Source: Desulfobulbus propionicus DSM 2032 (GTDB lineage Bacteria; Desulfobacterota; Desulfobulbia; Desulfobulbales; Desulfobulbaceae). Taken from it: DNA of 32,000 nucleotides. Positions 10,376-30,121 of the stretch are shown here, piece after piece. The stretch covers positions 3,540,001 to 3,572,000 of the forward strand of contig NC_014972.1 of the NCBI RefSeq assembly GCF_000186885.1, given 5' to 3'. Below the pieces are notes generated by a model. It had not been told where the DNA came from. It was given only the letters and a program-made list of their open reading frames with translations, and did not search any database. The translations under genes were made by a program, and so were the position numbers. The first letter of the stretch is position 1, and each line of letters opens with the position of its first letter.

Positions 10376-10438
10376 GCCCTGGTTTATCCACGTATCGGTG
10401 CCCTCCCTGGTCCAAGGGGAAAGCGCTAGTCATCTTTT

Positions 10439-11606: not shown

Positions 11607-11733
11607 GCTGTGAATTGTATTATCCTTCTAGGGAGGTGTAGAGCGCATAACGGTGAAATAACCTGCCGGCCAAGTTTGCTGCCCACCTATTAAGAACGCG
11701 GCTATTTCCGGTCAGGTTTATTGACTTGATATG

Positions 11734-12117: not shown

Positions 12118-12118
12118 C

Positions 12119-12967: not shown

Positions 12968-13580
12968 AATTGTCTCCTGTGTTTAATTCAAGCATAACAA
13001 GTACGGGTAGGTTGGGGTGAGGAACGAACCCCAACAGAGTCAGCCCACAACACGATATCACTAACAGGACCGCAAGGAACAGCCCTGCCCCAACCGATTA
13101 AACCTCTAATTTTCGGCAAGAGAGCCAACACTACCCAGAATCAACAAGGAGAGCGAGGAGAAACAACACTCAGTCGAAGCAGCAAAAAAACCACCGCAAC
13201 CGTCCGAGCCCGTGAGTCGTGAAGATGCTGGCTCCGCAATTCTCGGCACCAACCATTTTTTCCCTAATATTCGCCAGGTTATTTTCGGTTGACACGGTAT
13301 TCCCTGATGGATACGTTGCCATGCAAGACGGCCGGCAAAGCAGCAAGCCGTTGAAAAAATACTATGATGACCGCCAAAACTCTGCTTGAAGAGGGAGATC
13401 TCTCCCTTGTGGTCGAGATGACACCCAGGTGGCCCGGTATCCCTCGGAACGACCGGCAATGACACAACGAAATTGCGCCGAAGACACTCTCTCCAAGGAT
13501 TGACAACCATCACGCTCCCCTGTGAAGGGAGCCATTACCCAAACTGCAAACGCATTCTGCAAACACAAGAGGACTTGCCC

Positions 13581-14402: not shown

Positions 14403-14417
14403 TCGCCAGGCCAAAGC

Positions 14418-16032: not shown

Positions 16033-16659
16033 TCAGTGCATAACACCATCGATCACTGCCCGGACCGCAAAGAACATCCCCGCCCCCAACGACAGCACCC
16101 GTCCCAACCGCTTCAGCCTCTGGTTTTCGACAAGATAGCCCCCAAACCCCAGGGGCAGCAGGTAGAGCGAGGTGCCCAGGAAAAAGGCAAGGAAGAACAG
16201 AGCCGCCGCCAACGGGCCAATGCCCTGGCCCCAGACCCAGGTGAGGGCGAGAAGAAACGGCGGGCAGAGGGAAAAGCCGGTCAGCGCGCCCAAGAGCAGC
16301 GGCGAGGCAACGCCACCCATGACCGAGCAGCCGAAGCGGCAGGAGAACCGCCGCAACAGTCCGAGCCCGTGGGCCATGAGCAACAGCGCCAGCAGCAGGC
16401 TCATCCAGGGGGCGAGCAAGCCACTGACCGCTTGCAGGGAATGACCGCTCAGCCCGGCAAGCATGCCAACCAGGGTGTAGGCACTCAGGCGGCCGCAGAG
16501 GAAGCGGCCCAGCAGCGGCCAGGCAAAGCGTCTTGCAACAGGCGATGGCGCAGTGGTGAGCATTACCGGCACCAGGGCCGGGACGCAGGCGACCAGACAG
16601 GCCGGACCGTTAGTCAGACCCAGCAGCAGCCCGGTTCCGGTTATTTCCAGGCCGGTCAT
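16033..16659 (-). CDS. Integral membrane protein (~208 aa, about 6 TM), Cys-containing; DsbD_2/TauE-like guess
   Basis: The protein is hydrophobic throughout. Membrane-embedded Cys motifs are present (GPACLVACVPALVP, GFSLCPPF). The start is taken at MTGLEITG (ATG 16657-16659), 4 nt after the activase stop. The family call is weak. Confidence 0.6.
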   Translation of the reverse strand: MTGLEITGTGLLLGLTNGPACLVACVPALVPVMLTTAPSPVARRFAWPLLGRFLCGRLSAYTLVGMLAGLSGHSLQAVSGLLAPWMSLLLALLLMAHGLGLLRRFSCRFGCSVMGGVASPLLLGALTGFSLCPPFLLALTWVWGQGIGPLAAALFFLAFFLGTSLYLLPLGFGGYLVENQRLKRLGRVLSLGAGMFFAVRAVIDGVMH

Positions 16660-16663: not shown

Positions 16664-17449
16664 TCAGGCCTGGGTCCCGGCGATGCGGGCCGCACCGATG
16701 GCACCGTTGAGCTGCGGGTGCAGCGGCAGATGGATATCAATCATCAATTCGTCTTCCAAGGCCTGAACAATACCGGGGTTGAGACCGCCACCACCGGTGA
16801 GCAGCACCCCCGGTTCAAAACGGGCCTTGCGTGCCATTGCACCGATGCGTTTGGCCAGGGCCTCGTGGATGCCGGCGACGATATCCCTGGCCGGCTTTTT
16901 ACGGGCCACCAGCGAGATCACCTCGGATTCGGCAAAAACCACGCAGGTGGAGTTGATGGTTGCCGGGGCAATGGATTGCAGGGACAAAGGGCCGAGATCG
17001 CTGACCTTCAGCTCCAGCACCCGGGCCAGGGATTCGAGAAAACGGCCGGTGCCGGCAGCGCACTTGTCGTTCATGACAAAGTTCTGGGTGTCGCCGTCCT
17101 CGCCTAGGACAATCACCTTACTGTCCTGGCCACCGATATCAATGACGGTGCGGATGTTGGCCTGCGGTGGTGCGGTCAGCAGTGCTCCGGCGGCATGGGC
17201 GCGAACCTCGGTGATGGTATCGTGGGCCACATCGATGATACGGCGGCTGTAACCGGTGGCCATGATCGAGCGGATGGTCTCGGTTGAACCACCGAGATCG
17301 TTCATGATCGTCTCCAGCAAGCGGCGCGAGGTGCCGGCGGCATCAATACCGGTGGGCCGGTGCTGGAAACCGGCCAGTTCCCCCTCTTCGGTGAGGACCG
17401 CCACCTTGACATAGGTGGATCCGGCGTCAATGCCGGCAAAATATTCCAT
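16664..17449 (-). CDS. HgdC/BcrAD_BadFG-type ATPase 'activase' for HGD-D-family enzymes (261 aa)
   Basis: Motifs: MEYFAGIDAGSTYVKVAVL (ASKHA phosphate-1), IDIGGQDSKVI, NDKCAAGTGRFLE (cluster-bridging Cys region), STCVVFAESEVISL, and LTGGGGLNPG. AAGGAG lies upstream of ATG 17447-17449. The 153-codon N-terminal extension in the ORF track is low-complexity and crosses an inverted repeat. Confidence 0.9.
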   Translation of the reverse strand: MEYFAGIDAGSTYVKVAVLTEEGELAGFQHRPTGIDAAGTSRRLLETIMNDLGGSTETIRSIMATGYSRRIIDVAHDTITEVRAHAAGALLTAPPQANIRTVIDIGGQDSKVIVLGEDGDTQNFVMNDKCAAGTGRFLESLARVLELKVSDLGPLSLQSIAPATINSTCVVFAESEVISLVARKKPARDIVAGIHEALAKRIGAMARKARFEPGVLLTGGGGLNPGIVQALEDELMIDIHLPLHPQLNGAIGAARIAGTQA

Positions 17450-17550
17450 GGCTGTTCTCCTTGGGTTGATGGGGTTTGAATGGGCTGGAGGTTGATTGTT
17501 GGGATCAGGCCTCGAAGCACCTCTTTCATATAAAGCGGGTTTGTTTTTTT

Positions 17551-17685
17551 CTCCCGCAGAGGCGCAGGGGCGCGGAGAAGATAAGGACGTCTGTTTGCTG
17601 CGCCTCAGTGCTCGACTGAACACTTGCAGTACAAACACTCCCTTTTCTCTGTGCCCCCCTCTGCGCCTCAGCGCCTCTGCGGGAG
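17551..17685. repeat. Perfect 15-bp inverted repeat enclosing ~105 nt, with internal GAGGCGC/GCGCCTC repeats
   Basis: CTCCCGCAGAGGCGC (17551-17565) pairs with GCGCCTCTGCGGGAG (17671-17685). CTGCGCCTCAG occurs at 17599-17609 and 17661-17671. The element sits in the only large gap (335 nt) of the 16-27.5 kb gene chain. Confidence 0.6.
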
Positions 17686-17784
17686 TCCCTTGCACAGTCA
17701 ACCACTGGGGTGTCTTCTCGAATAACGGGGGCTCTTGCTGCAATGCACCAAAGGAGGAGATCCTCTCTGCCTTCGGGATGGCAC

Positions 17785-19074
17785 CTATCGCCGTTTGCGC
17801 TGTACCAGCATCTCCACAAAGGCCTCGATGCGGGTGCGTAACTGTTCCACATCCTCGGGACTGTAGTCGGTTTCGATACGCACCATTGCCACCCCCGACT
17901 CCTTGCACACCGCCTCCACCCGTCCCACCTCGAAATCATAGACCACGCAGCCCTTGAGCACGTGGTAGACCACTCCATCGACCCGGTGGGAGGCAATCAT
18001 CCGCCGCAGGGTGACCAGCCGATCCTCGTTGGGGGCAAAACTCGGACAGATGCAGGGCATGAGCGTGCGTGCGGCCAGGGCGATAAGCTGCGCGCGCAGA
18101 TTGCGTTCCGGATGGCCCACCGGGTCGTAGAGCGCCCGTTCGCCGACGCAGGATTCGTCGGCCACCAGGATGGCCCCCAACTCCTCGATAAGGGTGGGCA
18201 GCTTGAGGTTGGGAAAGATGACCGGACTACCGGCAATGAAAATGCGCGGGGCACGGGCCGGGCACACCGCAATCTGCCGCTGCTCCAACTCGTCGTTGAG
18301 CGTGCGCATGGCCCTGGTCCAGGCTTCCACCTCCATGAAGGAGAAGGCATTGGCCGCCACCATCGCCTGCCGCCCCCAGAGCGGGCTGGTCTCCGCGCTA
18401 CGCAGGGCCTGCAAGCGCCGCATCTGGCTCTGGGCCGCTGCCTGCACCTGGATGGCCTGATCCAGGGTCTGAGCAGTGATGCGCACCCGCCTCCCCTGCT
18501 CCCGGCTCATATGCTGCTCCAATCGCTCCTTGAGGGCCATGACTTGCAGCAGCCAGGCCTGCTGGGAGATTTCCGAGTCCTTGAGATGGGGCACCTCCAG
18601 CATCCACACCTCGCGGAAGCGCGACAGCTCCTCGGCAAACTTGCGTTTGGCATCGCAGGTGGTGGGCACGATCACCACATCGCAGAGATCGTAGACGGCC
18701 AGACCTGGCTGGGCGGTCAAACCGAGTGAAGACTTGGCCAGGGGGCAGCCGTCACGGGGCACATGCTCCTCACCCGCCGCGCAGGAGGACGAGCAACCGC
18801 CGCAGAGCCGCAGGGGGATGGCACCAACGGCGTAGATCAGCTCCTCCGGCACCAAAATACAGTAAATGCCGATCACCGACCGGGTTGCACCGTCACGCAA
18901 GAGCAACGATCTGGGATCGTTGGCAACAAAGACCTGTTCCAGGGCCTCGATAAAGGGGGCAAGCGCGGCGGGGCCATCGGTCAGATCGCGGAGCATGGCC
19001 AACTGCCGGCCGGCCTCGCGGCTGATCTGCCGCAGCCAGCGGCCCGCTGCCTGGGGTTGGAGCGGTTTATTCAT
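17785..19074 (-). CDS. Single-subunit 2-hydroxyacyl-CoA dehydratase/benzoyl-CoA reductase (HGD-D) family protein, double-cubane-cluster-reductase-like (429 aa)
   Basis: Family-like blocks are present: VIGIYCILVPEELIYAVGAIPLRLCGG, VIVPTTCDAKRK, RIFIAGSPVIFPNLKLPTLIEELGAILVADESCVGER, and VDGVVYHVLKGCVVYDFE. A single polypeptide is paired with an activase downstream. The start is taken at MNKPLQ (ATG 19072-19074), overlapping the upstream stop by 8 nt (ATGAATAA). Confidence 0.8.
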   Translation of the reverse strand: MNKPLQPQAAGRWLRQISREAGRQLAMLRDLTDGPAALAPFIEALEQVFVANDPRSLLLRDGATRSVIGIYCILVPEELIYAVGAIPLRLCGGCSSSCAAGEEHVPRDGCPLAKSSLGLTAQPGLAVYDLCDVVIVPTTCDAKRKFAEELSRFREVWMLEVPHLKDSEISQQAWLLQVMALKERLEQHMSREQGRRVRITAQTLDQAIQVQAAAQSQMRRLQALRSAETSPLWGRQAMVAANAFSFMEVEAWTRAMRTLNDELEQRQIAVCPARAPRIFIAGSPVIFPNLKLPTLIEELGAILVADESCVGERALYDPVGHPERNLRAQLIALAARTLMPCICPSFAPNEDRLVTLRRMIASHRVDGVVYHVLKGCVVYDFEVGRVEAVCKESGVAMVRIETDYSPEDVEQLRTRIEAFVEMLVQRKRR

Positions 19075-20038
19075 GGCAAGACTCCGTAGCCGACGGGCGA
19101 TTGTGCTGCATCGCCAGGGCCGGGTGGCTGAAAAATCCCCGCGAGGAGGATCTGTAGATGGCAAGCCCCATAAAATCGGCACGCAGGGCGCGGTCTTCCG
19201 GGCAGTGCTCAATGCACTTCAGGCAGAGGATGCAATCGCCAAAGGTCACGTCGACCCGCCCCCGCGAGCTGAACACCTCGGTGATCTCCATGGGGCAGAC
19301 ATCGGCGCAGATGCGGCAGTGGGTGCAGGTGGCATCCTCCTTCTTCAATTTCAACAGACTCCAGCGCCGGTACCAGGACATCAGCAAGCCCAGCGGGCAA
19401 TACGGGCACCAGAAGCGGCGTTTGACCAAGGCGCCGATGATGGCCATCAGCGAAAAGAGCAGGCCCAGCGAGGACATCACCAGCCGGGTGGTGCTTTCAA
19501 AGTCGACCAGGATGCGATCCGGCGAAAAGGTGATCAGCGGCAGGATGTACTTGCCGGGGCACAACTGGCAAAAAGGGATGAACAGATCCAAGGCCACCGA
19601 GGGAAAGAACACCGGAAAGGCCACCCACAGCGGAATGAGCACGGCAATGGCCAGGAAGATCCACTTGGCCCAGCCAAGCCGCTGCCGCAATCGTTGATCA
19701 AAACGGGCAAAGCCCATGCCGAGCGCGCGCCGCAGCCGGTCCATCAGGTCCTGGAAAAACCCAAGCGGACAGATCCAGCCGCACCAGGCCCGGCCGATCA
19801 ACAGCACCAGCAGGCTGAACCAGAAGAAGCGTTCGAGAAAGAGCTGCATCTCCGCCCAGGTAAACGAGCCGAGGCTGGTTTGCAACGGCAGAAAAAAGCA
19901 GGTGCCGGCCCGGGTAGGCACAAAACAGCAGGAAAAGGTGGGCAGAAAACTGCCCAGATGCAACCCGGCACAGGCGCCAAAGAGCAAGATTGCAAAGGAA
20001 GTGGCCAAGATTAGCCAGCGGAGGTGAGCGATACGCAC
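19067..20038 (-). CDS. NapH/MauN/YccM-type membrane-bound polyferredoxin (323 aa)
   Basis: TM helices are present, with WCGWICPLG and FWCPYCPLG (CxxxCP/CxxCP) motifs. Two ferredoxin motifs follow: CTHCRICADVCP and CILCLKCIEHCP. The start is assigned to GTG 20036-20038, 2 nt after the upstream stop, with AAGGAGGAG just upstream. The longer ORF-track start would overlap the upstream gene by 150 nt. Confidence 0.8.
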   Translation of the reverse strand: MRIAHLRWLILATSFAILLFGACAGLHLGSFLPTFSCCFVPTRAGTCFFLPLQTSLGSFTWAEMQLFLERFFWFSLLVLLIGRAWCGWICPLGFFQDLMDRLRRALGMGFARFDQRLRQRLGWAKWIFLAIAVLIPLWVAFPVFFPSVALDLFIPFCQLCPGKYILPLITFSPDRILVDFESTTRLVMSSLGLLFSLMAIIGALVKRRFWCPYCPLGLLMSWYRRWSLLKLKKEDATCTHCRICADVCPMEITEVFSSRGRVDVTFGDCILCLKCIEHCPEDRALRADFMGLAIYRSSSRGFFSHPALAMQHNRPSATESCHE

Positions 20039-20040: not shown

Positions 20041-21048
20041 CTACTCCTCCTTGACGCGGCACTGCGCAAAGCGCACCAGGCCCAGCCGCTGCTGCCGCCG
20101 CTTCCCCAGCATGGCCCCGCCTACCAGCAGCAGGGTACCGCCGAGACCGAGCCCGGCCCAGACCATGTAACCAGCCACATGGCTGGTCCACTCCGGCCGG
20201 TTACGGAAGATGATCATCGGCAGGGTGGCGACATGGAGGGCCTGATGTTCCGGGTCTTCGACCCTGACCACATAGAGCAGCTTATCGTAGTGGAGCTGCT
20301 TAGAGCGGTCGTCAAAGGGAATGACTGTGAAGCGGCCGGAGGCATCGGTACGATAGCTCCGGCGCCAGCCGCTGCCCTCGGCAATCGCCTCGACCATGGC
20401 CCCGGCCAGGGGACGCCCCTGATAGCGTACCTCCATGCCATACTCCTCGTGCGGGCGCTGGAAACCGCCCCCCATGCGGTACATGGCCGGTGAACGGGCT
20501 GAACCGATCTCCAGGGCGATGGCGGGATCCTCGAAGAAGAAGGCCGGGGCCGATCCGGGACGTCCGTCATGCTTGTAATGGCCGACCATCAGCTTGGGAT
20601 AGAGGTGGAGCCGTTGCCGACCACCATTCCCATCAAGCTGAAAATGACCACCCACCAGATAGCGGCCATTGAGGTTGAGGTCCTCAGGCAGGACGATTTC
20701 CCGCATGTCCGGGCTTACCGTTGTTGCCTTGCGGACTCCGTCCGGATCGCAGATGACCACCGTACCCGCCGGCAGCAGGGCCTCGGCCTCCTGCCCCATG
20801 GCGATGAAGGGATCGGCCAATACGCCCCGCACCAGTTCCAGGTGTTTGGGTTTCTCCTGGACACTCTGTCGCTGTTCGCGCTCCTCTCGGATCTGTCGCC
20901 AGTTGAGGTTGTCCATCGCAAAACGGTAGACGTGGAGGCCTTCCTGTTGCAGTTGCCAATAGAGGAGTTTGGGCGCATCTGCGCCAGAGCCAATTTGGGG
21001 AACAAACCCTACTATTATCAAGAGGAAAAAACGTAGCGGCCCCTTCAT
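20041..21048 (-). CDS. Periplasmic protein with signal peptide and C-terminal TM anchor (335 aa); function unknown
   Basis: From ATG 21046-21048 the protein starts with the signal peptide MKGPLRFFLLIIVGFVPQIGSGA. A beta-rich body includes a carboxypeptidase-regulatory/transthyretin-like stretch (GRPLAGAMVEAIAEGSGWRRSYRTDASGRFTV). The C-terminal TM segment is VWAGLGLGGTLLLVGGAML, followed by a basic tail. The ATG overlaps the CobN-like stop (ATGA). Confidence 0.65.
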   Translation of the reverse strand: MKGPLRFFLLIIVGFVPQIGSGADAPKLLYWQLQQEGLHVYRFAMDNLNWRQIREEREQRQSVQEKPKHLELVRGVLADPFIAMGQEAEALLPAGTVVICDPDGVRKATTVSPDMREIVLPEDLNLNGRYLVGGHFQLDGNGGRQRLHLYPKLMVGHYKHDGRPGSAPAFFFEDPAIALEIGSARSPAMYRMGGGFQRPHEEYGMEVRYQGRPLAGAMVEAIAEGSGWRRSYRTDASGRFTVIPFDDRSKQLHYDKLLYVVRVEDPEHQALHVATLPMIIFRNRPEWTSHVAGYMVWAGLGLGGTLLLVGGAMLGKRRQQRLGLVRFAQCRVKEE

Positions 21049-24000
21049 TGTCCCAGCCTCTCCAGACGCCATACCGGTCGCCACTTCTCGACATCAGCAG
21101 CGGTCATGACCTCAACCTTGGAGCCCTGGAACTCCTCGCGTACCTCGCCGATACTTTCCTCCATGTCACCCTCGATTAACAGCGCCGCCTCCTGCACTGC
21201 GGCCAGCCGTTCGGCATCGGCCTGCCACAGGCCCCGGCTCTGGGCTTCAAGCAGACGGCGGGTGATCTCCTCCAGGCCGTAGGGGTTTTCGCGGCGCAGC
21301 CATTCTAGATTGGTCTGATCCTGAATGTAGGTGGTCACCACCCGGTCAAAGACCCAACCGGCCACGGTTTCGGTGGTGGCACTCCATTTGAACAGGGTGT
21401 TGACCCGGCCGGCCACCTCGCCCGCGCCCTGGTAGCCCTCCTGTTGGCGCTGATCGATCCAGTGCGGGTTGAGCAGTTTGGCCATGGTCGTGGCCTCCAG
21501 ATCTTCCTGAAAGTCCCGCACCGAATGATCGGCCTCGCTGTTGTTGTCGGCAAAGTAGATCCGGGCCCGTTTGCCGGTCAAGGCCTTGGCCGCCACCGAC
21601 ATGCCGCCGAGACAACCGGTGTAGCAACTACAGTCGGTGGCATCGTACTCCGGCGAGGCTTGGCGCATATAGCTCACCTCCACATCTTTGAGGCGGGCGG
21701 CAAAGAGGCGATGCGCCGCCACGCCCTGAACACGTTCAAACCCACTGATCCGGTCCGAACCGTAGGCAAAGCCACTCCAGTTGATATAGGTCTCGGCCAA
21801 ATCGGCCTCATCGTTCCAGGCTGAAGCATCCAAAGCCAGACCAACCCCGGTGCCGCTGGCCCCAGGAGCCGAAGAAAAGACCCGGAAGCTGGCCATTCGC
21901 CGCAGTTCTTCGCCGCTGTGCTGCTCACCCAGTTCCCGGCGTAACTCGTCGAGTTGTTCCAGGGTGTGTTTGCGGATGAAATTCTGTTCAATCGGTTCAG
22001 GCAGATCCCCGGCCATGACGGCGGCCTCGTCGAGCAGGTCAGCAAAGTGCGGCACCATGTCGCGGAGGATGGAACTGGTCTGGATGACCACATCCACCCG
22101 CGGCCGGAGCACACCGGGGCCGTCGGTGCGATCCAGTTGCAGTACGTGCAAGGGGATGGGTTCAACTCCGCAGACCCGGCCGTTTGCTTGCCAGAGAGGC
22201 CGCATACCCATCAGGGCCAGGATCTGGCAGAAGACCTCGCCGTCGGACTTGAAGGCATCGATGCTCCACAGGCTGATGCCCACGCTCTCGGGGAAACGCC
22301 CCTCGTCCTCGAGGTATTTGCGCAAAAGATTATCCGAGAGCGCCTGTCCCACCTCCCAGGCGGCCCGCGTGGGGAGGGCGGCAACATCGCTGGTGAAAAA
22401 ATTGCGCCCCGTGGGAAGGGCCTCGGTCTTGCCCAGGGCCAGGGAGCCACAGAGGCCCGGCTCGATGTACTCGCCGTCCAGGGCGCGAAGCAGTTGACCA
22501 ATCTCACGGGTGCAAAGGCCGATGCGGCCCCCCACATCCTGGCACCAATCCAGGAGTCGGCGAAACGGTTGCTGGCCGGGCTCCGCTTTGCAGCCGTCCT
22601 TTGTCGTTGTCAGCAACCATTCGAGCACGGCCACGGCATCGTCAAACGCATTGCCCGAGGACGGCTGATGATGGGCAGCGATCTCCGCCAACAGGGGCAG
22701 GCCGTCCACTGGTTTGCCAAGGATGGTGGCCAACAGAGTGGCAATGCCGTGGCTGTCCGGGGCTGTTCCCAACAGATGTGGGCCGGTGGCAGAAAGGACG
22801 CGTCGGCTCCGGCCAATCCGGCGGGAGAGCAGCTCCATTGCCCGATCAAAATCCTCCTCCCCTTCCAGACCGCCCATTTGCTGCATCAGCGGCTGCATTC
22901 GTGCCCGCAGCACCTGCTGCCGCTGGTTTTCCCCGTGCAGTTTTGCCTTCTGGTACTGGTCAAGCAGGTCTTCCAACTCCAGGGTCATGGCATCCAGCGG
23001 CGCCGGCCGACGAACCGGGCAGAGATGATCGACCATCACCGCCCTGGCCCGCCGCTTGGCCATCAGCCCTTCGCCCGGCACATCCATGATGTAGAGGTAG
23101 ATGTTGGGCAGATCGCCCAGGCTTATCTCCGGAAAACAGGCTGCCGAGAGTCCGACCTGCTTGCCCGGCAAAAATTCGAGCGCCCCATGGGCACCGAAAT
23201 GGAGCACCGCATCCGAGGTGGCACGGATATAGGCGTAGGTGGCCAACCAGTGTGGTGGTGGCGAGAGGTGCGGATCATGGAGGATGCGGCAGACCTCGCC
23301 GTTGCACTTGGCTCCGTAGCAGCCGCGCTTGGGCTGGACAATGATCTGGAGATGACCAAAGCGCAGGCCGGTCACCAACAAAGTGGCCTGGCCGTCTTGC
23401 CGGTACACCATGCCCTCGCCGGGAAAGCGGCCCCAGTCGTTTTCAACCCGCTGCCTGGCCGCCTCGGGCATATCTGTTAGTAATTGCAGGTATTCCTCCG
23501 CATCCACCCGGTGCAGCACCCCACCCTTGGCCACGATCTCGTCGGTGGTGGTCCAACGGAACTCGGAGATGGCCTTGCGTGCGAGCAGCAGATCGAGCAG
23601 TGCTTTGCCGTCCTCCGGGGCATTGCCGGTATCGTAGCCCGCCTCGCGCAGGGCGGTGATCAGGGCCGCCAGACTGGCAAAGGTATCCAGACCGGCGGCC
23701 AGCCCCAGGGTGGCTTCCACGCCCTTGCAGGGATTGTTGTGCAGCACAATGGTCAGCCGCTTTTCATCATTGTCGAGCAGGCGTAGGCGGATCCAGCGAT
23801 GCAGCCGCAGGCAGAGCCGCTCGATCTGTTCCGGCAGAGGGATATATCGTCGCAGCAACAGCCCGGTGACGGGATCGGTTTCCCCTCTGGTGGCAGCCAC
23901 GGCGGTGGGCTCGATCACTCCGGCCATCTCCGGCTGGGTGAGGCTGAAAACCATGGATGCGGCGCCCGCCCCCGCGCCGGTGACATCCTGGCGCCACTGC

Positions 24001-24821
24001 TCGGGCGTTTGCTGGTAGAGACGCAGCAGTTGCACCACCGGCAGATTCAGTTCCTTCAGGATGGTGACATCCTCGGGCTGGGTGAGAAGGCGGCCGGCAA
24101 GAAGGTTGAGCAGCAACTGCGGCGCTGCGCCCCGCAGATACTCCAGCCAGGGATACCGTTGCTCCGGGGGCAGGCTGCTGTCAGTCATGCCCTCGGTGAC
24201 CACACACAGCGGCGTTAGGGCCTGGCATTCCAGGGCCTGGATGAGGGCGTCGATTTCAGCGTGGTTGTTCTCGACAATCTGTCCGTAATAACAGAGCAAC
24301 GCCACCAGGGGCCGCTTGACGGTGTCGCTGATGCGGCTGCACTGCCAGCGCAGATAGTCGCTGGTATCAAAGAAAAACGTATCGTGTTCAGCATGATAGA
24401 TGCCGCAGGTCCGTACCTGCTCCGGCGGATCGATGTGGTGATCCGTTCCCGTGGCGCAAGCGACGAGAAAATGGATCCCATTGACAAAGTTGGCCAGCGA
24501 AACCTGCTCCAGATAGGCGGAAAATCGCACGGCCTGCTTCGCAGTGAAAGTGGTGAAGCCGGGTTGCCGCTGCGGCCCGAGATCGATGCGGTGCGGCAGT
24601 GAGCTTGCCGCCTCCAGCAGCGCCTCATACTGCGGTAAATCGCGAAACAACTGGACAATGCAGAGATCAGCCCAACCGCTTGCCATCAGCTTAATTGCCT
24701 CCCCGGCCTTGACATGCTGGGCATAAAAGCGCAGCTCAACCCCCTCGGCGAGCAACAGGGCGTATGCACGGGACCAAGTCTGGGTCTGGAACATCTGTCC
24801 GTGGACAAAGAGAATCTTCAT
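21045..24821 (-). CDS. CobN/ChlH/BchH-family large chelatase-like protein (1258 aa)
   Basis: Size and collinear blocks are typical of CobN. These include HFGAHGALEFLPGKQ, NIYLYIMDVPGEGLMAKRRARAVMVDHL, ALDGEYIEPGLCGSL.GK.EALPTGRNFF, SLWSIDAFKSDGE and RVDVVIQTSSILRD. No signal peptide is present. The start is taken at MKILFVHG (ATG 24819-24821, AGGAGG upstream), overlapping the upstream stop (ATGA). Confidence 0.9.
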   Translation of the reverse strand: MKILFVHGQMFQTQTWSRAYALLLAEGVELRFYAQHVKAGEAIKLMASGWADLCIVQLFRDLPQYEALLEAASSLPHRIDLGPQRQPGFTTFTAKQAVRFSAYLEQVSLANFVNGIHFLVACATGTDHHIDPPEQVRTCGIYHAEHDTFFFDTSDYLRWQCSRISDTVKRPLVALLCYYGQIVENNHAEIDALIQALECQALTPLCVVTEGMTDSSLPPEQRYPWLEYLRGAAPQLLLNLLAGRLLTQPEDVTILKELNLPVVQLLRLYQQTPEQWRQDVTGAGAGAASMVFSLTQPEMAGVIEPTAVAATRGETDPVTGLLLRRYIPLPEQIERLCLRLHRWIRLRLLDNDEKRLTIVLHNNPCKGVEATLGLAAGLDTFASLAALITALREAGYDTGNAPEDGKALLDLLLARKAISEFRWTTTDEIVAKGGVLHRVDAEEYLQLLTDMPEAARQRVENDWGRFPGEGMVYRQDGQATLLVTGLRFGHLQIIVQPKRGCYGAKCNGEVCRILHDPHLSPPPHWLATYAYIRATSDAVLHFGAHGALEFLPGKQVGLSAACFPEISLGDLPNIYLYIMDVPGEGLMAKRRARAVMVDHLCPVRRPAPLDAMTLELEDLLDQYQKAKLHGENQRQQVLRARMQPLMQQMGGLEGEEDFDRAMELLSRRIGRSRRVLSATGPHLLGTAPDSHGIATLLATILGKPVDGLPLLAEIAAHHQPSSGNAFDDAVAVLEWLLTTTKDGCKAEPGQQPFRRLLDWCQDVGGRIGLCTREIGQLLRALDGEYIEPGLCGSLALGKTEALPTGRNFFTSDVAALPTRAAWEVGQALSDNLLRKYLEDEGRFPESVGISLWSIDAFKSDGEVFCQILALMGMRPLWQANGRVCGVEPIPLHVLQLDRTDGPGVLRPRVDVVIQTSSILRDMVPHFADLLDEAAVMAGDLPEPIEQNFIRKHTLEQLDELRRELGEQHSGEELRRMASFRVFSSAPGASGTGVGLALDASAWNDEADLAETYINWSGFAYGSDRISGFERVQGVAAHRLFAARLKDVEVSYMRQASPEYDATDCSCYTGCLGGMSVAAKALTGKRARIYFADNNSEADHSVRDFQEDLEATTMAKLLNPHWIDQRQQEGYQGAGEVAGRVNTLFKWSATTETVAGWVFDRVVTTYIQDQTNLEWLRRENPYGLEEITRRLLEAQSRGLWQADAERLAAVQEAALLIEGDMEESIGEVREEFQGSKVEVMTAADVEKWRPVWRLERLGQ

Positions 24822-26386
24822 GTCAAGCCTCCTGGTTGAGCAATGGCCCACCGGTCAAGAGGCACCTGGTGATTTGGCGAGTAGTGCCGCAACAGTGTTG
24901 GGTAATCGATTCTGTCCTGGAAGCGCTTCACCCTTGTTTTTCTGGTATCAAGGATGACGCCACCGTTTTCTCCCTGCTGAACAAGGGTTTCCTGCCAGCG
25001 TTGGTGGCCTTCCGGGGGTAACCATATCCCCGCCCCCCCGGCTGAGATCACCACCACCGCCACCTGTTCGACGGTACGGGCTCCACCAAGCAATTGGACC
25101 GCATCGGTGAATGAACGGCTGAAAATAACGACCACATCAGCACCCTCTTTGGCACAGGCCAACACCATTTCCGGGTGATAGAGCGCTCTTTCCGGCAAAA
25201 GATGAATCCTTGCAGGCCCGCAATCGCAACAGGGGAAAGGAATGGGCATTGCAACAGAGTCGCTGAAAACACCTAAAGAGAAAGGCCTCGTGTGACCATC
25301 AAACCAATAAACAGCCTTCACCGCCTCCATTGTTCGCACAAGCAGAATTTTCTGCCCCTGGGATACGCACCAATCATGTAAGTTGGCCATGTCGGCATCA
25401 TCGTAATCGTTGATCGGAAGGAGGTGGAGCGTATCGGCACCCCCCTCCGAGTTCGGGTTCGTGTTTCTGATTGGCGGGATAGCACCTGCCTGTTCAGAAC
25501 AGTGACATCGAACCTCCAACTTCCCAGGCGGAGGCAAATGGAGAAATGTTGTCAAATCATCGATCCCAGTTCTGTTGAGCGTACAGGGATGAACGTGGTC
25601 AGTACTCCTTGAAGTCAGACGCTTGAGGCGATTGCCGGAGAGCAGTTTGTGGTCCGCATTGAGGGGCAAATTAATCCGCAGCAGCTTCGAGGTTCGGGAA
25701 CATTTCTGGAGTTGCACGATTCCTTGTGGACTGACGATGGCCGAAGGGGCGTGCCGGCAATCCATGAGCAGATCCTTGCCGGTGCGGTTGCAGGCAAGGA
25801 CGAACAGCCCATTTTCCAAGGCCCTAGCTCGCCATATTTCCAAGGGATCAAGTCCCAATGGAGGCCAGTTAGCGAGCACGAGTAACAGATTGGCGCCGCG
25901 AAGAGCCGTGACTCTTGCCATGAGACTATGATACGAGTCGGAGCAGATCAGTACCCCCATCCGTCCCCAAGGGGTATCAAATGTATTGTTTTCATAGGGA
26001 TTACCAGGACAGGCCCAACGGAATTCAGCATTCATCTTCCGATAGCGACAAACAATTTCTCCTTCCGCATCAAGGACAAATGCGCTGTTGTAGAGAATGC
26101 CATTTGCCGGGTCTCGCTCTGCCATGCCAATACAAGCGTACATGCCGTAATGACGGCAGATCTTACCGACCTCCGACAGGGTTGGGCCATCAACGGCTTC
26201 GACGTAGGGTGCGACATCCCGCATGTCGGCAAAAGAATATCCGGAGATAACCATTTCAGGGGCCACAACCATCTGTACCCCTTTTTTCCCGGCCACATGG
26301 CAGAGGTCCAGCAACTGCTGCCGGTTGGCCTCGGGCTGTTTGTATTCAACGGATAGATGCATCAAACCGAACTTCAGAAAAGCCAT
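24818..26386 (-). CDS. Carbon-nitrogen hydrolase (nitrilase-superfamily) protein with a second, apparently degenerate CN-hydrolase-like domain (522 aa)
   Basis: The N-terminal domain has an intact Glu-Lys-Cys triad context: VVAPEMVISGY, CRYRKMN and GVLICSDSYH. RARALENGLFVLACNR is also present. The C-terminal ~220 aa repeat the fold pattern (PERALYHPEMVLACAKEGADVVVIFS; GGARTVEQVAVVVISA), but the nucleophile position is unclear by eye. The start is taken at ATG 26384-26386 (GGAG 6 nt upstream). Confidence 0.8.
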   Translation of the reverse strand: MAFLKFGLMHLSVEYKQPEANRQQLLDLCHVAGKKGVQMVVAPEMVISGYSFADMRDVAPYVEAVDGPTLSEVGKICRHYGMYACIGMAERDPANGILYNSAFVLDAEGEIVCRYRKMNAEFRWACPGNPYENNTFDTPWGRMGVLICSDSYHSLMARVTALRGANLLLVLANWPPLGLDPLEIWRARALENGLFVLACNRTGKDLLMDCRHAPSAIVSPQGIVQLQKCSRTSKLLRINLPLNADHKLLSGNRLKRLTSRSTDHVHPCTLNRTGIDDLTTFLHLPPPGKLEVRCHCSEQAGAIPPIRNTNPNSEGGADTLHLLPINDYDDADMANLHDWCVSQGQKILLVRTMEAVKAVYWFDGHTRPFSLGVFSDSVAMPIPFPCCDCGPARIHLLPERALYHPEMVLACAKEGADVVVIFSRSFTDAVQLLGGARTVEQVAVVVISAGGAGIWLPPEGHQRWQETLVQQGENGGVILDTRKTRVKRFQDRIDYPTLLRHYSPNHQVPLDRWAIAQPGGLT

Positions 26387-26438
26387 GATCTGCTCCAATT
26401 ACGTCTGAACCATAGTGCAATGACCTTGATACACCTTT

Positions 26439-27494
26439 CTATTGATCCGCCATGCTGGCAGAAGCCAACGTTTGATACAAGGTGCAGGCCAGCGTGCGAA
26501 CGACTGGGGGATTGTACAACAGACGGCTGGGGCAATCATTGGGGCAACAGCCCGACAATGGGCACTCACCACAGTCCTGGCCGAAGGTTGATAGCTCCGC
26601 GGAAAGGATAACTGAGGAATAGTTCGCTTCCGGATCGATCACAAAGCGTTCGTCGCCCAGGGTCTGGTTGCAAGGGAACCAGCGGCCATCAGGATGAACC
26701 GCCAAGCTACCCCCTTGCGCTGCTTGACAGAAATTGCGGGGAGCCATTCGCCGATCACGGTGAAGCATCCGCCGTACCAGATCCCATTCGCGCAGCCGTA
26801 GTGGTATCTTCCGCTGCGTATTGATGGCTGCCAATGCCTTGGTCAGGGAACAAACGCCACCTTTCAGTGCTTCCGCTGTCGCAGGAATAGGTTTATATTC
26901 CACATTCTCGGCCGAGCCCTTCTTCACCAAGAGGTCAAGGCCGATCCCCCTGGCTTGACGGAAGGCAGAGAGTAACCAGGCCAGGCGGTCCAACTGCCCC
27001 ACGTTCTCACCTGAGACCACGGCAGTGACTCGGAAGGGGATTTGCTCCGACTCTAGCAGCATCAGCCCGCGGAGGGTCTCGGCAGCTTGGCCGCGCAAGG
27101 ATTGTTGTGTCTTGGGTGAACCATCAAGGCTGATGCCCACCTGGAGACCAAAGGTGCGACACAGTTCGATCACCTCGGGCGTCAAACAGGTACCATTACT
27201 TTGCAGTCCCATGGTGTACGGTCGCGACAGGCTCCTTGCCCGTTCACAGGCCTCTTCGATCAGATCCGGCACCAGGCAGGGTTCGCCCCCGGTCAGCTGA
27301 ATGTGCAACGGCCCGGAGCCGGAAGCCGCACGGGCAAAGGCACGCTCAAGAGTGGCACTGCCCATATCCTGCCGTCCCGGAGTATCACCATGATAGCAGT
27401 AGCGGCAACGCAGGTTACAGCGGGTGGTCAGGGCAAGAATCAGATAGTTGATTGATTGGGGGACAGCCGAGTGCGGCAAGGGAGGGGGCTTCAA
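26439..27494 (-). CDS. Radical SAM enzyme with C-terminal SPASM/twitch-type Cys-rich domain (351 aa)
   Basis: Motifs: LALTTRCNLRCRYCYHG (CxxxCxxC) and IQLTGGEPCL (GGE motif). The C-terminal Cys set is CQAAQGGSLAVHPDGRWFPC ... CGECPLSGCCPNDCP. There is no in-frame ATG or GTG before the cluster motif. The start is assigned to TTG 27492-27494, overlapping the cobO stop (TTGA). An alternative TTG lies at 27477-27479. Confidence 0.85.
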   Translation of the reverse strand: MKPPPLPHSAVPQSINYLILALTTRCNLRCRYCYHGDTPGRQDMGSATLERAFARAASGSGPLHIQLTGGEPCLVPDLIEEACERARSLSRPYTMGLQSNGTCLTPEVIELCRTFGLQVGISLDGSPKTQQSLRGQAAETLRGLMLLESEQIPFRVTAVVSGENVGQLDRLAWLLSAFRQARGIGLDLLVKKGSAENVEYKPIPATAEALKGGVCSLTKALAAINTQRKIPLRLREWDLVRRMLHRDRRMAPRNFCQAAQGGSLAVHPDGRWFPCNQTLGDERFVIDPEANYSSVILSAELSTFGQDCGECPLSGCCPNDCPSRLLYNPPVVRTLACTLYQTLASASMADQ

Positions 27495-28012
27495 AACTCG
27501 ATCCCCTTCTGGGCCTTGATGCCGCTCTTCAGGGGATGCTTGACCACCCGCATCTCGGTGACGAGATCAGCCGCCTCAATGAGGGCTTGCGGGGCGTAAC
27601 GACCGGTGATCAACACATGCTGCTCGGCACGGCGCGATGCAAGAAACTCCAGGCAGGGTGCAATCTCCAACATACGGTAATGGAGCAGGTAGGTGAACTC
27701 ATCAAGCACCACCAGATGATACTGGCCGCTGTCGATGGCCTGGCAGGCCAGGGCCCAGCCCTCACGGGCTAGGCGGATGTCCTCCTCCAGGCTCTCCGAT
27801 TTCCAGGTAAACCCACGTCCCATGACGTGCAAATCGATGCAATCATCAAAGCGTTTGACCGCCTCCAACTCGCCGTAGCGCCAACTGCCCTTGATGAACT
27901 GGATGAAACAGACCCGCAGCCCATGGCCCGCTGTCCGCAGGGCCATGCCTAGCGCAGCGGTGGTTTTGCCTTTGCCGTCGCCGGTGTGGATGATCAGTAA
28001 GCCTTTGGTCAT
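27491..28012 (-). CDS. cobO: Cob(I)yrinic acid a,c-diamide / cob(I)alamin adenosyltransferase, CobA/CobO/BtuR type (173 aa)
   Basis: The sequence MTKGLLIIHTGDGKGKTTAALGMALRTAGHGLRVCFIQFIKG...YGE...LVVLDEF...ITGR.AP..LIE.ADLVTEM..VKHP is a full-length match to the CobA/CobO P-loop family. The start is at ATG 28010-28012 with AAGGAA upstream. Confidence 0.9.
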   Translation of the reverse strand: MTKGLLIIHTGDGKGKTTAALGMALRTAGHGLRVCFIQFIKGSWRYGELEAVKRFDDCIDLHVMGRGFTWKSESLEEDIRLAREGWALACQAIDSGQYHLVVLDEFTYLLHYRMLEIAPCLEFLASRRAEQHVLITGRYAPQALIEAADLVTEMRVVKHPLKSGIKAQKGIEF

Positions 28013-28068
28013 TGGTGATTCCTTATTCCTGGAACGAATCGGTCTTTGCAAAGCGGCCATGCCGCCCT

Positions 28069-28117: not shown

Positions 28118-30121
28118 TCAAAAATGGAATTTCACACCGCCGTACACGGAGAATCCCTCCATGCAGTAGCCGGATTCCGTGTATTCCTTATCCAACAGGT
28201 TATCAATGCGGGCAAAGAGATCCATATTCTCCAAGGCCTTATACGTACCGGACAGATTCACAGTGGTGACCCCGTCTTCCTCCCAGCGGATACTGTTCCA
28301 GCTCGGATCATTGAGCGGGACAATCTGCGCATCCCGCCAATTGATATCCAAGGCCATGGTCAGCTTGTCCATGGAATAGAGGGTGACGATGAAGTCAATC
28401 TTGTTTCTCGGCAGGTAGGTATTGCGGGTCCAATCGGCATTCTCATCAGCCTTGGAACGGGAGTCGATGTAGGTGTAGGCCAGATCAAATCGAACCATCT
28501 TCCAGGGCTGCACGCGAATCGAGGTCTCAATACCTGAGCTTTCACCCTCCTTGGCGTTGTCGTAACGCATGGCCGTATTATCGAAAATGATCATGTCGTC
28601 GAACTGGGTTTGAAAATAGGTAACCCCTACATTGACCTTGCCCCCTGCCAGCTCCTGGTTGACACCGATCTCGTAACTGGTGCTTTCTTCCGGTTGCAGG
28701 TCCGGGTTACCGATGGTGATCAGGTTGCCGTTATAGAGGTAGCCACCATAAATCTCGTACAATCCCGGAGTGCGATAGCCGGTGCCCACGTGGGCATGGA
28801 GTTTGGTTCCGGTGTTTTTAAACAGATACGCCGCCGAGGTTTCCCAGACAGCCTCACCATCAAATTCATCGTGGTCGTTGTATCGGCCTCCCAGGTTGAT
28901 AAACAGGCTGCGATCAAGCAGGGCAAACTGGGCCTGGCTAAAGACGTCTTTATTCCCCCACGACTCATCAAAACTGACCGGGGTATAATCGCCGGCATAT
29001 TTGTTCTTGGGTTCCTGACCGTCGTAGACGGATTTCTCGTAATCAGCCCCGAGATTGAGTGTCAGCCACTGGTTGAGATGCAGGTTGTGCTGCATTTCCA
29101 CATAACTGGTTTCGCCATCGTAGTTGGATTGGTCTCCCGGAGTGGTGGACCAAAAATAGTGGCGTTCGGTGGCGCCTTGCGAGCCCTTGAGCGAGAAATC
29201 CCACAGCGGCGAGATCGTCTGGTTCCAGTTGAGTCCCACCTGATAGAGTTGCCCTTCGCGATGCTGGTCCGCATAGGCCTGGTTCTTGATCAGACCGCCA
29301 TCGGCGCCCAGACTCGGAGAACTGCCCATGGCCAGATCGGTATCCGAAAAAATGCCGCTGAACTCGACGGTAGTCCTCTCTGTGGGTTTTACGCCTGCCC
29401 CAAAGGTCGCGCCGGTGTTATCGTACCAGTAGCCGTTGGGGCCACCGTTGTTGGCGCCATCGGTGGTGATGTACATGGGGTTGAAATCGACGTAATAGTT
29501 GTCCTTGCCGTAGGCGGCGCGGGCGTTGGTAACATAGGTGCCGTTGGGGCCGAACTCGTTGCGCCATTCCGCCGAAGGCCCGGATTGCCATCTTTTGGGA
29601 ATGATGTTGACCACCCCGCCCATGGCCTGGGAACCGTAGAGGGTACTGTTGGTCCCCTTCAGCACCTCCACCCGATCGAGATTGGAACCGCTGTACATAT
29701 CTTCGATGAAGTATTGCAGGGTGCTCTGGGTGTCGGCGGCATCGCGCAACGGCATGCCGTTGTACTGATATTGAGTGTACTGCGAGCCCGTGCCACGGAT
29801 GCTGATATTGGACCACTGCCCCATACCCCCGAGCCTGCGAAGATAAACGCCGGGCTCGTTGTCGAGCAATTCGGGGAGGAAATACTGTTGTTGCTCCTCC
29901 CGATCCTCGCTGTCGATAATATTGATGCTTTTGGTGGTTTCTTTGAGCAGGGTTTCCGTCCGCGAGGCGGTTACCACGATATCCTCGGCCTTCTGGATGG
30001 TTTGCTGTTCTTCGGAGGTTACGGTTTCCTGGTCATTGGCCAGCGCCGGAACGGCCATCCACGGCATCAGAGCCAGGGCAAAGAGTAACTGGCTCGGTTG
30101 CAGTCTTATTCTTGATTGCAT
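28118..30121 (-). CDS. TonB-dependent outer-membrane receptor (667 aa), BtuB-sized
   Basis: A signal peptide ends in PALA. A TonB-box-like EDIVVTASR is present. Plug motifs include ISIRGTGSQYTQYQYNGMPL and RVEVLKGTNSTLYGSQAMGGVVNII. The C-terminal barrel ends GGVKFHF. AAGGAG lies upstream of ATG 30119-30121. Confidence 0.9.
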   Translation of the reverse strand: MQSRIRLQPSQLLFALALMPWMAVPALANDQETVTSEEQQTIQKAEDIVVTASRTETLLKETTKSINIIDSEDREEQQQYFLPELLDNEPGVYLRRLGGMGQWSNISIRGTGSQYTQYQYNGMPLRDAADTQSTLQYFIEDMYSGSNLDRVEVLKGTNSTLYGSQAMGGVVNIIPKRWQSGPSAEWRNEFGPNGTYVTNARAAYGKDNYYVDFNPMYITTDGANNGGPNGYWYDNTGATFGAGVKPTERTTVEFSGIFSDTDLAMGSSPSLGADGGLIKNQAYADQHREGQLYQVGLNWNQTISPLWDFSLKGSQGATERHYFWSTTPGDQSNYDGETSYVEMQHNLHLNQWLTLNLGADYEKSVYDGQEPKNKYAGDYTPVSFDESWGNKDVFSQAQFALLDRSLFINLGGRYNDHDEFDGEAVWETSAAYLFKNTGTKLHAHVGTGYRTPGLYEIYGGYLYNGNLITIGNPDLQPEESTSYEIGVNQELAGGKVNVGVTYFQTQFDDMIIFDNTAMRYDNAKEGESSGIETSIRVQPWKMVRFDLAYTYIDSRSKADENADWTRNTYLPRNKIDFIVTLYSMDKLTMALDINWRDAQIVPLNDPSWNSIRWEEDGVTTVNLSGTYKALENMDLFARIDNLLDKEYTESGYCMEGFSVYGGVKFHF

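Follow-up and report, generated by a model that had tools for sequence, protein, structure and literature searches.

A putative double-cubane reductase and its activase in a conserved polyferredoxin and TonB-receptor cassette with a clade-specific link to cobalamin

A double-cubane protein in search of a function

What does a double-cubane reductase do for the cell that makes it? Double-cubane cluster proteins (DCCPs) have a solved structure and a nitrogenase-like chemistry without a known physiological role. Reviews up to 2022 list their function as unknown (PMC9351452, PMC7317905), in agreement with an initial annotation of the locus discussed here, which had remarked that the physiological substrates of the family are not established. 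The question is raised by a 32,000-nucleotide (nt) stretch of DNA from Desulfobulbus propionicus DSM 2032 (NC_014972.1), hereafter the window, in which a predicted DCCP and its ATP-dependent activase share an operon with cobO. The pair is interpreted here as the reductase arm, driven by ATP and working at low potential, of a TonB-dependent cassette under B12 control for the acquisition or salvage of cobalt or corrinoids, a reading to which we give about an even chance. A large DCCP subfamily of wide phylogenetic range is found to be tied to a conserved cassette that also encodes a NapH-like membrane polyferredoxin, a periplasmic protein of metal-capture fold and a TonB receptor, and in one clade of this subfamily the cassette stands under cobalamin riboswitches. 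A known enzyme family is placed in a previously unrecognised conserved system context and its function has become testable; no description of the cassette or of a riboswitch-controlled DCCP was found in the literature searched, a prior mention elsewhere being possible.

Identity of the DCCP and its activase

The two genes and their predicted products are:

17785..19074, minus strand: DCCP, double-cubane cluster protein (DCCP-type HGD-D reductase), 429 amino acids, cytoplasmic; assigned from Pfam HGD-D, PDB 6eno/7yyl, the 7-Cys motif and an AlphaFold (AF2) model
16664..17446, minus strand: HgdC/DCCP-R-type ATP-dependent activase (archerase), 260 amino acids; assigned from Pfam BcrAD_BadFG, TIGR00241 and PDB 4eht/1hux/7yyl_E

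The E-values and bit scores quoted below derive from Pfam, NCBIfam and PDB sequence searches of the window proteins. The larger protein (start MNKPLQ) matches the HGD-D family (PF06050) with E 7e-90 and, among PDB sequences, 6eno/7yyl with E 1e-55, whereas the HadC dehydratase subunit and BzdN reach no more than 2e-14 and 4e-14, respectively. The signature of DCCPs consists of seven cysteines, six of which ligate the [8Fe-9S] cluster while the seventh adjoins it (PMC7317905). The window protein carries the motif C72-X18-C91-X18-C110-X29-C140-X168-C309-X33-C343-X32-C376, whose spacing is identical in the 6ENO chain; in an alignment of homologues the six ligand cysteines are kept in 92 of 92 and the seventh in 81 of 92. 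Two extra cysteines, C131 and C341, are invariant across clade A, the group of loci to which the window belongs. The AlphaFold model (pLDDT 86) superimposes on 6ENO/7YYL with TM-scores of 0.83–0.87 over ~430 columns, a match that includes three confident N-terminal helices. Sequence and model together identify the protein as a DCCP, a predicted [8Fe-9S] reductase. As it reaches 327.8 bits against the NCBIfam double_cubane equivalog (NF040772), just below the cut-off of 350, it represents a divergent subfamily and not an orthologue of the type protein. A 52%-identical homologue bears the NCBI name 'double-cubane-cluster-containing anaerobic reductase', and the nearest named homologues come from Desulfobulbus propionicus (83% identity) and from Desulfobulbus metagenome-assembled genomes (MAGs).

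The activase (start MEYFAGIDAG) matches BcrAD_BadFG with E 9e-55 and TIGR00241 with 230 bits, which exceeds the cut-off of 125; its nearest solved structures are HadI (4eht, E 8e-55) and HgdC (1hux, E 1e-49), and 7yyl_E is also matched. It contains two cysteines in total, located in the motifs MNDKCAAGTG and STCVVFAESE, both of which align with HadI/HgdC. Judged by its sequence, it is an HgdC/DCCP-R-type ASKHA ATPase, whose two cysteines would hold the predicted dimer-bridging [4Fe-4S] cluster. The initial annotation had described the genes as a single-polypeptide double-cubane-type HGD-D protein and an HgdC-type activase. The 7-Cys motif and the 6eno/7yyl and TIGR00241 matches bear this out, and the seven cysteines align with those of DCCP (6ENO).

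The DCCP/DCCP-R pair of Carboxydothermus hydrogenoformans (CHY_0487/0488; 6ENO, 7YYL) resembles the window pair in its single HGD-D polypeptide, its 7-Cys spacing, its N-terminal helical extension, its structural match along the full length and the adjacent two-Cys ASKHA activase. The window DCCP is, however, only ~29–30% identical to the C. hydrogenoformans protein (DCCP_Ch), carries the additional C131 and C341 and stands in a context of riboswitch and uptake genes; it belongs to a clade with an obligatory NapH-like neighbour, whereas DCCP_Ch groups with loci that lack one. Another point of comparison is offered by the RACE activators (RACo, RamA, RamQ/OdmC), which are likewise ASKHA-fold ATPases and use ATP to drive the uphill reduction of Co(II) to Co(I) (PMC7317905, PMC12176620), the very function that had been proposed for the window pair. 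These activators constitute a different family of single large proteins with a ferredoxin-like domain of their own that act on protein-bound corrinoids, whereas the window activase is a small HgdC-type archerase with a separate double-cubane acceptor. Its 260 residues do not fit RACE/RamA membership, and TIGR04270 matches only the ferredoxin part of the NapH-like protein (E 7e-4).

Conservation of the cassette

The pair lies within a packed string of 11 minus-strand genes that extends from the window end to 16033. Their order, 5' to 3', is TBDR_b, TBDR_a, CobO, radical-SAM/SPASM protein, CN hydrolase, CobN-like protein, unk350, NapH-like protein, DCCP, activase and DsbD_2. The genes whose relatives accompany the pair across the surveyed loci are:

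19067..20038, minus strand: NapH/MauN-family membrane polyferredoxin, ~323 amino acids, four predicted transmembrane helices; Pfam Fer4_5 and Fer4 families
20041..21051, minus strand: unk350, predicted periplasmic DUF4198-fold protein, 336 amino acids, with signal peptide and C-terminal transmembrane anchor; AF2 model compared with Zcp/9gcb
16033..16656, minus strand: DsbD_2 (CcdA/DsbD/UreH-like) membrane protein, 207 amino acids; Pfam DsbD_2, E 4e-17
28118..30121, minus strand: TBDR_a, BtuB-like TonB-dependent receptor, 667 amino acids; best NCBIfam match TonB-B12, E 2e-52, sub-threshold
30157..32000, minus strand: TBDR_b, second TonB-dependent receptor, N-terminus cut by the window end; TonB-hemin subfamily 217 bits, sub-threshold, with the envelope of the hidden Markov model (HMM) reaching 31998

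The start of the DCCP gene overlaps the stop of the NapH-like gene by 8 nt, and the two appear to be translationally coupled. Upstream, the NapH-like and unk350 genes are adjacent and the CobN-like gene overlaps unk350 by 7 nt; downstream, 7 nt separate the activase gene from DsbD_2.

The neighbourhood was surveyed in 80 species-representative loci with DCCP relatives (36–80% identity) and in several more obtained from exact-protein look-ups, all annotated with tblastn and with iterated home-made HMMs built from the window proteins. The counts are of species representatives, not of independent events. Four groups, A to D, can be distinguished, with which a quick and rough neighbour-joining tree agrees:

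Clade A (at least 46% identity to the window DCCP; Thermodesulfobacteriota, a spirochaete, a planctomycete and an Omnitrophota MAG), 42 loci: NapH-like gene within 400 nt upstream 32/37, unk350 33/33, activase 35/35, DsbD_2 17/34, TonB receptor 22/26
Clade B (39–45% identity; mainly alpha- and gammaproteobacteria), 26 loci: NapH-like 25/25, unk350 22/22, activase 24/24, DsbD_2 23/23, TonB receptor 13/14 (in 11 of these co-directional and upstream)
Clade C (archaea, FCPU426 and others), 10 loci: NapH-like 10/10, secreted protein none, TonB receptor none, DsbD_2 sometimes
Clade D (including DCCP_Ch, 6ENO), 5 loci: NapH-like 0/5

The invariant core of the cassette is the series NapH-like, DCCP and activase, in that order, and the complete arrangement reads TonB receptor, unk350, NapH-like, DCCP, activase and then often DsbD_2. 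In other clade-A loci, such as L006, L016 and L018, the NapH-like gene is found farther upstream, for example beyond a receptor gene. The clade-C activase satisfies the distance criterion in 6 of 9 loci, and its gene is present in 10 of 10, sometimes in duplicate. Clade-B operons are self-contained: the receptor, unk350, NapH-like, DCCP, activase and DsbD_2 genes are often followed by exbB-exbD-exbD-tonB, and there is no ABC importer. In many clade-A1 cassettes a gene for a BtuF/IsdE-like chelate-binding protein replaces DsbD_2 directly after the activase gene.

Some single MAGs harbour paralogous pairs of DCCP cassettes (L012/L028, L011/L070 and L018/L036). In L012/L028 and L011/L070 one cassette is riboswitch-led and the other is without a riboswitch, which suggests functional diversification into paralogues for different cargoes. 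For L018/L036 no riboswitch lies upstream of either cassette in the available sequence, the only one of L018 being located downstream, before a separate receptor gene. The first cassette of L012/L028 and of L018/L036 has the BtuF/IsdE-like binding protein and the second DsbD_2; L011 and L070 both have the binding protein and neither has DsbD_2. In the clade-B locus L063 (Sedimenticolaceae) the product of the gene upstream of the cassette receptor (3326-5476) combines a DedA/VTT membrane domain with a pyridine-nucleotide-disulfide oxidoreductase in one polypeptide, which may hint at the non-B12 cargo of that clade. Scans for Fur/Zur boxes and for shared 10-mers upstream of 16 clade-B receptors returned no convincing site, and Pfam searches of genes flanking the archaeal, FCPU426 and Lentisphaerae cassettes gave mostly no matches and nothing informative.

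The membrane and periplasmic partners

The NapH-like protein is predicted to span the membrane four times with an N-in topology, according to the positive-inside rule. Its cytoplasmic side displays CX3CP (C86/C90), CX2CP (C211/C214) and a pair of CX2CX2CX3CP ferredoxin motifs; three further cysteines, C37, C157 and C160, face the periplasm and are invariant in 82 homologues. With NapH, MauN, CcoG and FtrD the window protein shares its four transmembrane helices, one or more CX3CP motifs and a pair of [4Fe-4S] motifs on the cytoplasmic side, and it differs from them in its invariant periplasm-facing cysteine triad. Because the score against TIGR02163 (napH), 79 bits, lies below the cut-off of 213, the protein is best regarded as a family-level relative of NapH/MauN and not as a NapH orthologue. 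The iron-uptake system FtrABCD pairs periplasmic proteins with an inner-membrane permease, and its FtrD component is presumably a membrane polyferredoxin of the NapH type. To our knowledge, coupling to an ATP-driven double-cubane reductase has not been reported for any member of the NapH family.

The unk350 protein gives only weak, sub-threshold Pfam matches to DUF4198 (18.8 bits, cut-off 34) and CarboxypepD_reg. Its AlphaFold model (pLDDT 79) has as best PDB match by Foldseek the metal-bound DUF4198 protein Zcp (E 5e-10), and the Ni-bound DUF4198 structure 9gcb is also found. Zcp of Neisseria gonorrhoeae, solved with Zn, Cu or Co bound, shares the predicted fold of unk350 but not its C-terminal membrane anchor, and no conserved His triad is evident among the unk350 homologues. 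Proteins of the DUF4198 family capture or buffer metals in the periplasm and bind Zn, Co, Ni or Cu (PMC12663993); their genes have been linked to metal-starvation responses and lie beside TonB-dependent receptors in the surveyed loci. The DsbD_2 protein has four membrane cysteines (a CxxxC in the first transmembrane helix, one more cysteine and a C-P-P motif) that are invariant over 47 homologues. It would act as a thiol relay in the manner of CcdA or else as a permease for soft metals, the superfamily presumably including metal-transporter relatives.

The link to cobalamin

The remaining genes of the operon contain the more evident ties to corrinoids:

27491..28015, minus strand: CobO/BtuR cob(I)yrinic acid a,c-diamide adenosyltransferase, 174 amino acids; TIGR00708 214.6 bits, cut-off 167.75
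26439..27494, minus strand: radical SAM/SPASM protein, 351 amino acids; Pfam Radical_SAM, NCBIfam matches sub-threshold only
24818..26398, minus strand: carbon-nitrogen hydrolase family protein, 526 amino acids; Pfam CN_hydrolase, E 8e-38
21045..24851, minus strand: CobN-like ('BtuS'-type) chelatase homologue, 1268 amino acids; Pfam CobN-Mg_chel, E 6e-302

Cobalamin riboswitches were sought with Rfam RF00174 and with a custom covariance model built from its hits; the E-values of the custom model are rough, and hits at the Rfam gathering threshold agree with it wherever both were run. An RF00174 element is found upstream of the cassette and co-directional with it in 14 clade-A loci. In L006, L013, L014, L015 and L017 the aptamer immediately precedes the unk350-NapH-DCCP-activase series, with no receptor between, and in L007, L011, L012, L020, L022, L030, L031, L039 and L043 it stands before a receptor-led operon that contains the cassette. 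L007 is a Desulfobulbus locus whose DCCP is 80% identical to that of the window. In another Desulfobulbus MAG (L088) a riboswitch lies directly before a 78%-identical orthologue of TBDR_a, amid cbiZ, cbiK and cobN-chlID.

Among the well-flanked clade-A loci, defined as the 26 with at least 6 kb of upstream sequence, the riboswitch is present in 12, a CobN-like gene in 11, a BtuF/IsdE-like binding protein in 11 and CobO in 4 (~15%). CobO occurs altogether in six surveyed loci, the window and L087: in the window, L003, L009 and L087 it is part of the DCCP operon, and in L017, L018, L030 and L034, which represent distinct lineages, it is next to or near the cassette. CobO, CobN-like, CbiZ and CbiK genes make up the corrinoid or tetrapyrrole accessory functions around the cassettes. 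In clades B, C and D no surveyed locus has a riboswitch, CobN or CobO. The corrinoid neighbourhood that the initial annotation had pointed to, with the pair on the same strand and in the same packed gene string as cobO, does recur in other genomes: in clade A it shows in the riboswitch, the CobN-like gene and the BtuF/IsdE-like binding protein, while cobO itself belongs to a minority of loci. The corrinoid or cobalt link is stronger than could then be known, and it holds for the window's clade.

The receptors are BtuB-like or heme-receptor-like (homologues of TBDR_a carry source names such as 'vitamin B12 transporter' or 'BtuB1') and the binding proteins are IsdE/BtuF-like; both lean towards corrinoids or cobalt tetrapyrroles as cargo. 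Since the cassette belongs to the cobalamin-riboswitch regulon of the window's lineage, its expression is expected when corrinoids are scarce, and riboswitch control likewise indicates a cobalt-containing cargo in this clade. The B12 regulon of sulfate reducers and related bacteria would gain the cassette genes as new members.

A proposed role in reductive uptake

In the scheme that we favour, which accounts for every component, the cassette would be expressed under corrinoid scarcity for the acquisition or salvage of cobalt-containing cargo, whether corrinoids, cobalt tetrapyrroles or cobalt in a tight chelate. The activase dimer would accept an electron from ferredoxin or flavodoxin and, by ATP hydrolysis, drive it onto the [8Fe-9S] double cubane of its partner. 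The DCCP may dock on the cytoplasmic [4Fe-4S] domain of the NapH-like protein and either feed electrons into this membrane wire or reduce cargo presented there. Reduction of the cobalt centre, from Co(III)/Co(II) in the direction of Co(II)/Co(I), could thereby render it labile or reactive, and the recipient of the product might be CobO, which would adenosylate it, the CobN-like protein or a permease. The NapH-like protein would bring the redox unit to the membrane and connect it with a cysteine site that faces the periplasm, the incoming cargo being handled by the DUF4198-fold protein and the receptor. In its most general form the proposal is that NapH-associated DCCPs power an ATP-driven Fe-S reductive import of a kind not described before, in which electrons below about -0.5 V are placed onto TonB-imported metal cargo, and that in the riboswitch-controlled clade the substrate is cobalt at the centre of a salvaged corrinoid, of a cobalt tetrapyrrole or of an inert Co(III) chelate. 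This generalisation is tentative, and we consider it possible but less than an even bet. If true, it would give double-cubane reductases a physiological function for the first time and anaerobes a new route to cobalt or B12. The cassette also suggests where the enigmatic cytoplasmic clusters of NapH/CcoG-family proteins may obtain their electrons.

Several precedents lend the scheme plausibility without proving it. The cluster of DCCP is reduced neither by dithionite nor by Ti(III) citrate, so that the protein requires its ATPase (PMC9351452), and it is an established principle that ATP can drive the reduction of Co(II)/Co(I) in corrinoids and of Ni(II)/Ni(I) in F430 (PMC12176620). CcoG, a member of the NapH family, reduces a metal (Cu) and carries two [4Fe-4S] clusters, the source of its electrons being unknown (PMC7558416). 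HmuS is a CobN-like heme dechelatase for which NADH reduced the bound heme to the ferrous state in vitro, although reduction alone released no protoporphyrin from the high-affinity complex. The MCR activation complex (A2 ATPase, McrC, Mmp proteins and [8Fe-9S-C] clusters) similarly delivers ATP-dependent low-potential electrons through 8-Fe clusters to a tetrapyrrole metal, taking F430 from Ni(II) to Ni(I) at -650 mV (PMC12176620). Its proteins are unrelated, with an ABC-type ATPase and L-cluster-like clusters, and its target is an enzyme-bound cofactor.

A number of observations weigh against assigning the pair to cobalt or corrinoid acquisition. The cassette is generic and not intrinsically B12-specific, as the alpha- and gammaproteobacterial and archaeal versions lack riboswitch and cob genes; the tie to B12 is confined to the window's clade, and even there the riboswitch goes undetected in 14 of the 26 well-flanked loci, as it does in all clade-B and clade-C loci. 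Riboswitch control of the window operon itself would follow from its relatives, the operon start and leader being situated beyond the window end, which falls inside TBDR_b. The model of the window DCCP retains the N-terminal helices, which favours a small-molecule substrate or pure electron transfer. In DCCP_Ch this extension leaves narrow channels through which only small molecules reach the cluster (PMC7317905), and its retention argues against direct binding of a 1.3-kDa corrinoid at the cluster. The homologue alignment of unk350 contains no broadly conserved His/Cys metal site, the Zcp triad not having been mapped residue by residue. The CobN-like protein is dispensable for the cassette, since a very close strain (L087, TBDR_a 97% identical) has the same operon without it, the CN-hydrolase gene standing directly before the DUF4198-like gene. 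Finally, menaquinol cannot thermodynamically feed the activase, which leaves the role of a NapH-type donor unclear; an electron input from menaquinol through the NapH-like protein to the activase was judged, on our own reasoning, implausible without extra energy input.

Alternative explanations

The initial annotation had suggested corrinoids or metalloporphyrins as the substrate class, with the reduction of cob(II)alamin for CobO as the step to assay. In its specific form this idea makes the pair a soluble enzyme dedicated to the ATP-dependent conversion of cob(II)alamin to cob(I)alamin, which would supply CobO in strict anaerobes. The thermodynamic sense of this idea stands: the otherwise inaccessible potential of the double cubane fits the Co(II)/Co(I) couple near -0.5 V, riboswitch control in relatives is compatible with it, and cobO is found in or near the cassette in the loci named above. 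The pairing with CobO, by contrast, draws little support from a gene that only 4 of the 26 well-flanked loci of clade A possess and that clades B and C lack altogether, the module being present also where any B12 signal is absent. A soluble reductase leaves the invariant NapH-like, DUF4198-fold, TonB-receptor and DsbD_2 partners unaccounted for, and the retained channel-closing extension speaks against it as well. CobA/CobO adenosyltransferases bind four-coordinate cob(II)alamin and flavodoxin can serve as reductant, so that a dedicated reductase is not obligatory. On balance this explanation is distinctly unlikely. We regard it as rather unlikely, too, that the system takes up cobalt ions, with the receptor importing cobalt or a chelate, the DUF4198-fold protein capturing the ion, the NapH-like protein acting as a CcoG/FtrD-like reductase energised by DCCP and activase, and DsbD_2, of the LysE superfamily, serving as inner-membrane permease. 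The match of unk350 to metal-ion-bound Zcp and 9gcb, the CcoG precedent and the absence from clade-B operons of an ABC importer for a large chelate would suit such a system, as would the same-MAG pairs with and without riboswitch (L012/L028, L011/L070), if these are paralogues for different metals. B12 riboswitches are, moreover, known to control cobalt transporters. Against it stand the lack of conserved metal-binding residues in unk350, the BtuF/IsdE-like chelate-binding protein that takes the place of DsbD_2 in many clade-A1 cassettes, and the BtuB-like or heme-like character of the receptors; reduction of free Co(III), besides, requires no ATP-boosted electron.

The proposal that the DCCP reduces a small non-metal molecule, such as a ligand released from a corrinoid (for example cyanide) or a compound with an N-O, N-N or C-S bond, and that the linkage to uptake is one of co-regulation only, takes its strength from DCCP_Ch, which reduces acetylene, hydrazine and azide and has narrow channels, with CO and cyanide binding at or near the cluster (PMC7317905, PMC9351452); the window model has the same N-terminal extension. 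The strict gene order and the start/stop overlap with a membrane polyferredoxin, maintained across bacteria and archaea, argue instead for a physical complex, and no genes of a small-molecule pathway are conserved nearby, which makes this proposal very improbable. As for an ordinary carbon-metabolism enzyme of the 2-hydroxyacyl-CoA dehydratase or benzoyl-CoA reductase type that neighbours B12 genes by chance, it is suggested by public annotations, which name homologues '2-hydroxyacyl-CoA dehydratase' or 'BcrC/BadD/HgdB'. Dehydratases such as HgdAB and HadBC, which combine two different HGD-D subunits with a three-Cys [4Fe-4S] site in each, are no fit for an operon with one HGD-D gene whose product has the seven cysteines and finds in DCCP by far its best match. 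Both the dehydratase and the benzoyl-CoA reductase readings fail on these grounds and because no CoA-transferase or other CoA-pathway gene, nor a dehydrogenase, lies near the DCCP gene in the window; in view also of the conserved neighbourhood and riboswitch control, this explanation is effectively refuted.

Accessory genes of the operon

The CobN-like protein falls below the cut-off of every NCBIfam CobN/BchH equivalog. Together with a TonB receptor, and with no ChlI/ChlD partner in the window, it recalls HmuS/BtuS and the hmu heme-uptake operon of Bacteroidota; the 'BtuS' class has been proposed for metalloporphyrin salvage. It is, however, nearer to true CobN (7c6o, E 3e-135) than to HmuS (9d26, E 6e-92), and the hmu operon differs in being devoid of DCCP, activase and NapH-like genes. 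A hydropathy scan revealed neither a signal peptide nor an N- or C-terminal membrane-anchor helix, and one marginal internal segment at 370-388. Assignment of the protein as an HmuS-type periplasmic dechelatase was dropped in view of its greater proximity to CobN and the lack of a terminal anchor.

The genes for the radical-SAM/SPASM protein and the 526-residue CN hydrolase (24818-27494) travel together in B12-regulated loci (L003, L009, L020, L087 and L088). L088 has the two next to cbiZ and cbiK but without a DCCP cassette. Their products are candidates for a role in corrinoid remodelling.

The spacer between the DCCP and activase genes

Between the DCCP and activase genes lies an unusual intergenic region:

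17447..17784, minus strand: intra-operon spacer, 338 nt, with a long hairpin; 15-bp perfect inverted repeat

The arms of the repeat (17551-17565 and 17671-17685, CTCCCGCAGAGGCGC) form the long hairpin, with z = -2.2. Rfam at its gathering threshold returned no match within the 338 nt. The corresponding spacer measures only 9–18 nt in L007 and L009, and in the D. propionicus relative it is 455 nt long and barely alignable with that of the window. A conserved RNA element was discarded as an explanation, there being no conservation among Desulfobulbus strains, and the spacer is probably a lineage-specific insertion or an intra-operon element for processing or attenuation.

Other features of the window

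At the Rfam gathering threshold the whole window contains only two riboswitches, at 10.1–10.6 kb. These tandem cobalamin riboswitches (10078-10260 and 10424-10605, both on the minus strand) are located directly upstream of the operon for a B12-dependent methylmalonyl-CoA mutase, which comprises a mutA-like gene (7803-9938), mutB (5626-7806) and meaB (4404-5543). Each is followed by a terminator-like hairpin, at 10375-10343 (a 14-bp stem and a T-run) and at ~10005-9965. The arrangement of riboswitch and mutase genes is kept in three Desulfobulbus genomes (L007 12963-13485; L088 16857-17357). A riboswitch before an enzyme that requires B12 is unusual.

The riboswitch-led mutase operon is separated from the DCCP cassette by an amino-acid ABC transporter on the plus strand (13473-15930) and by a stretch of low GC content (~10600-13500; 0.45–0.48 compared with ~0.6), which encodes a ParA-like ATPase (12119-12967) and small open reading frames. 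As cassette and mutase operon are adjacent in L007, the low-GC stretch and the transporter region are likely to be an insertion. At the opposite edge of the window (52-2284), genes for an SSB (52-480), an unassigned 335-residue open reading frame and a weakly Rad52-like protein (1592-2284) suggest a recombination module of a prophage or mobile element.

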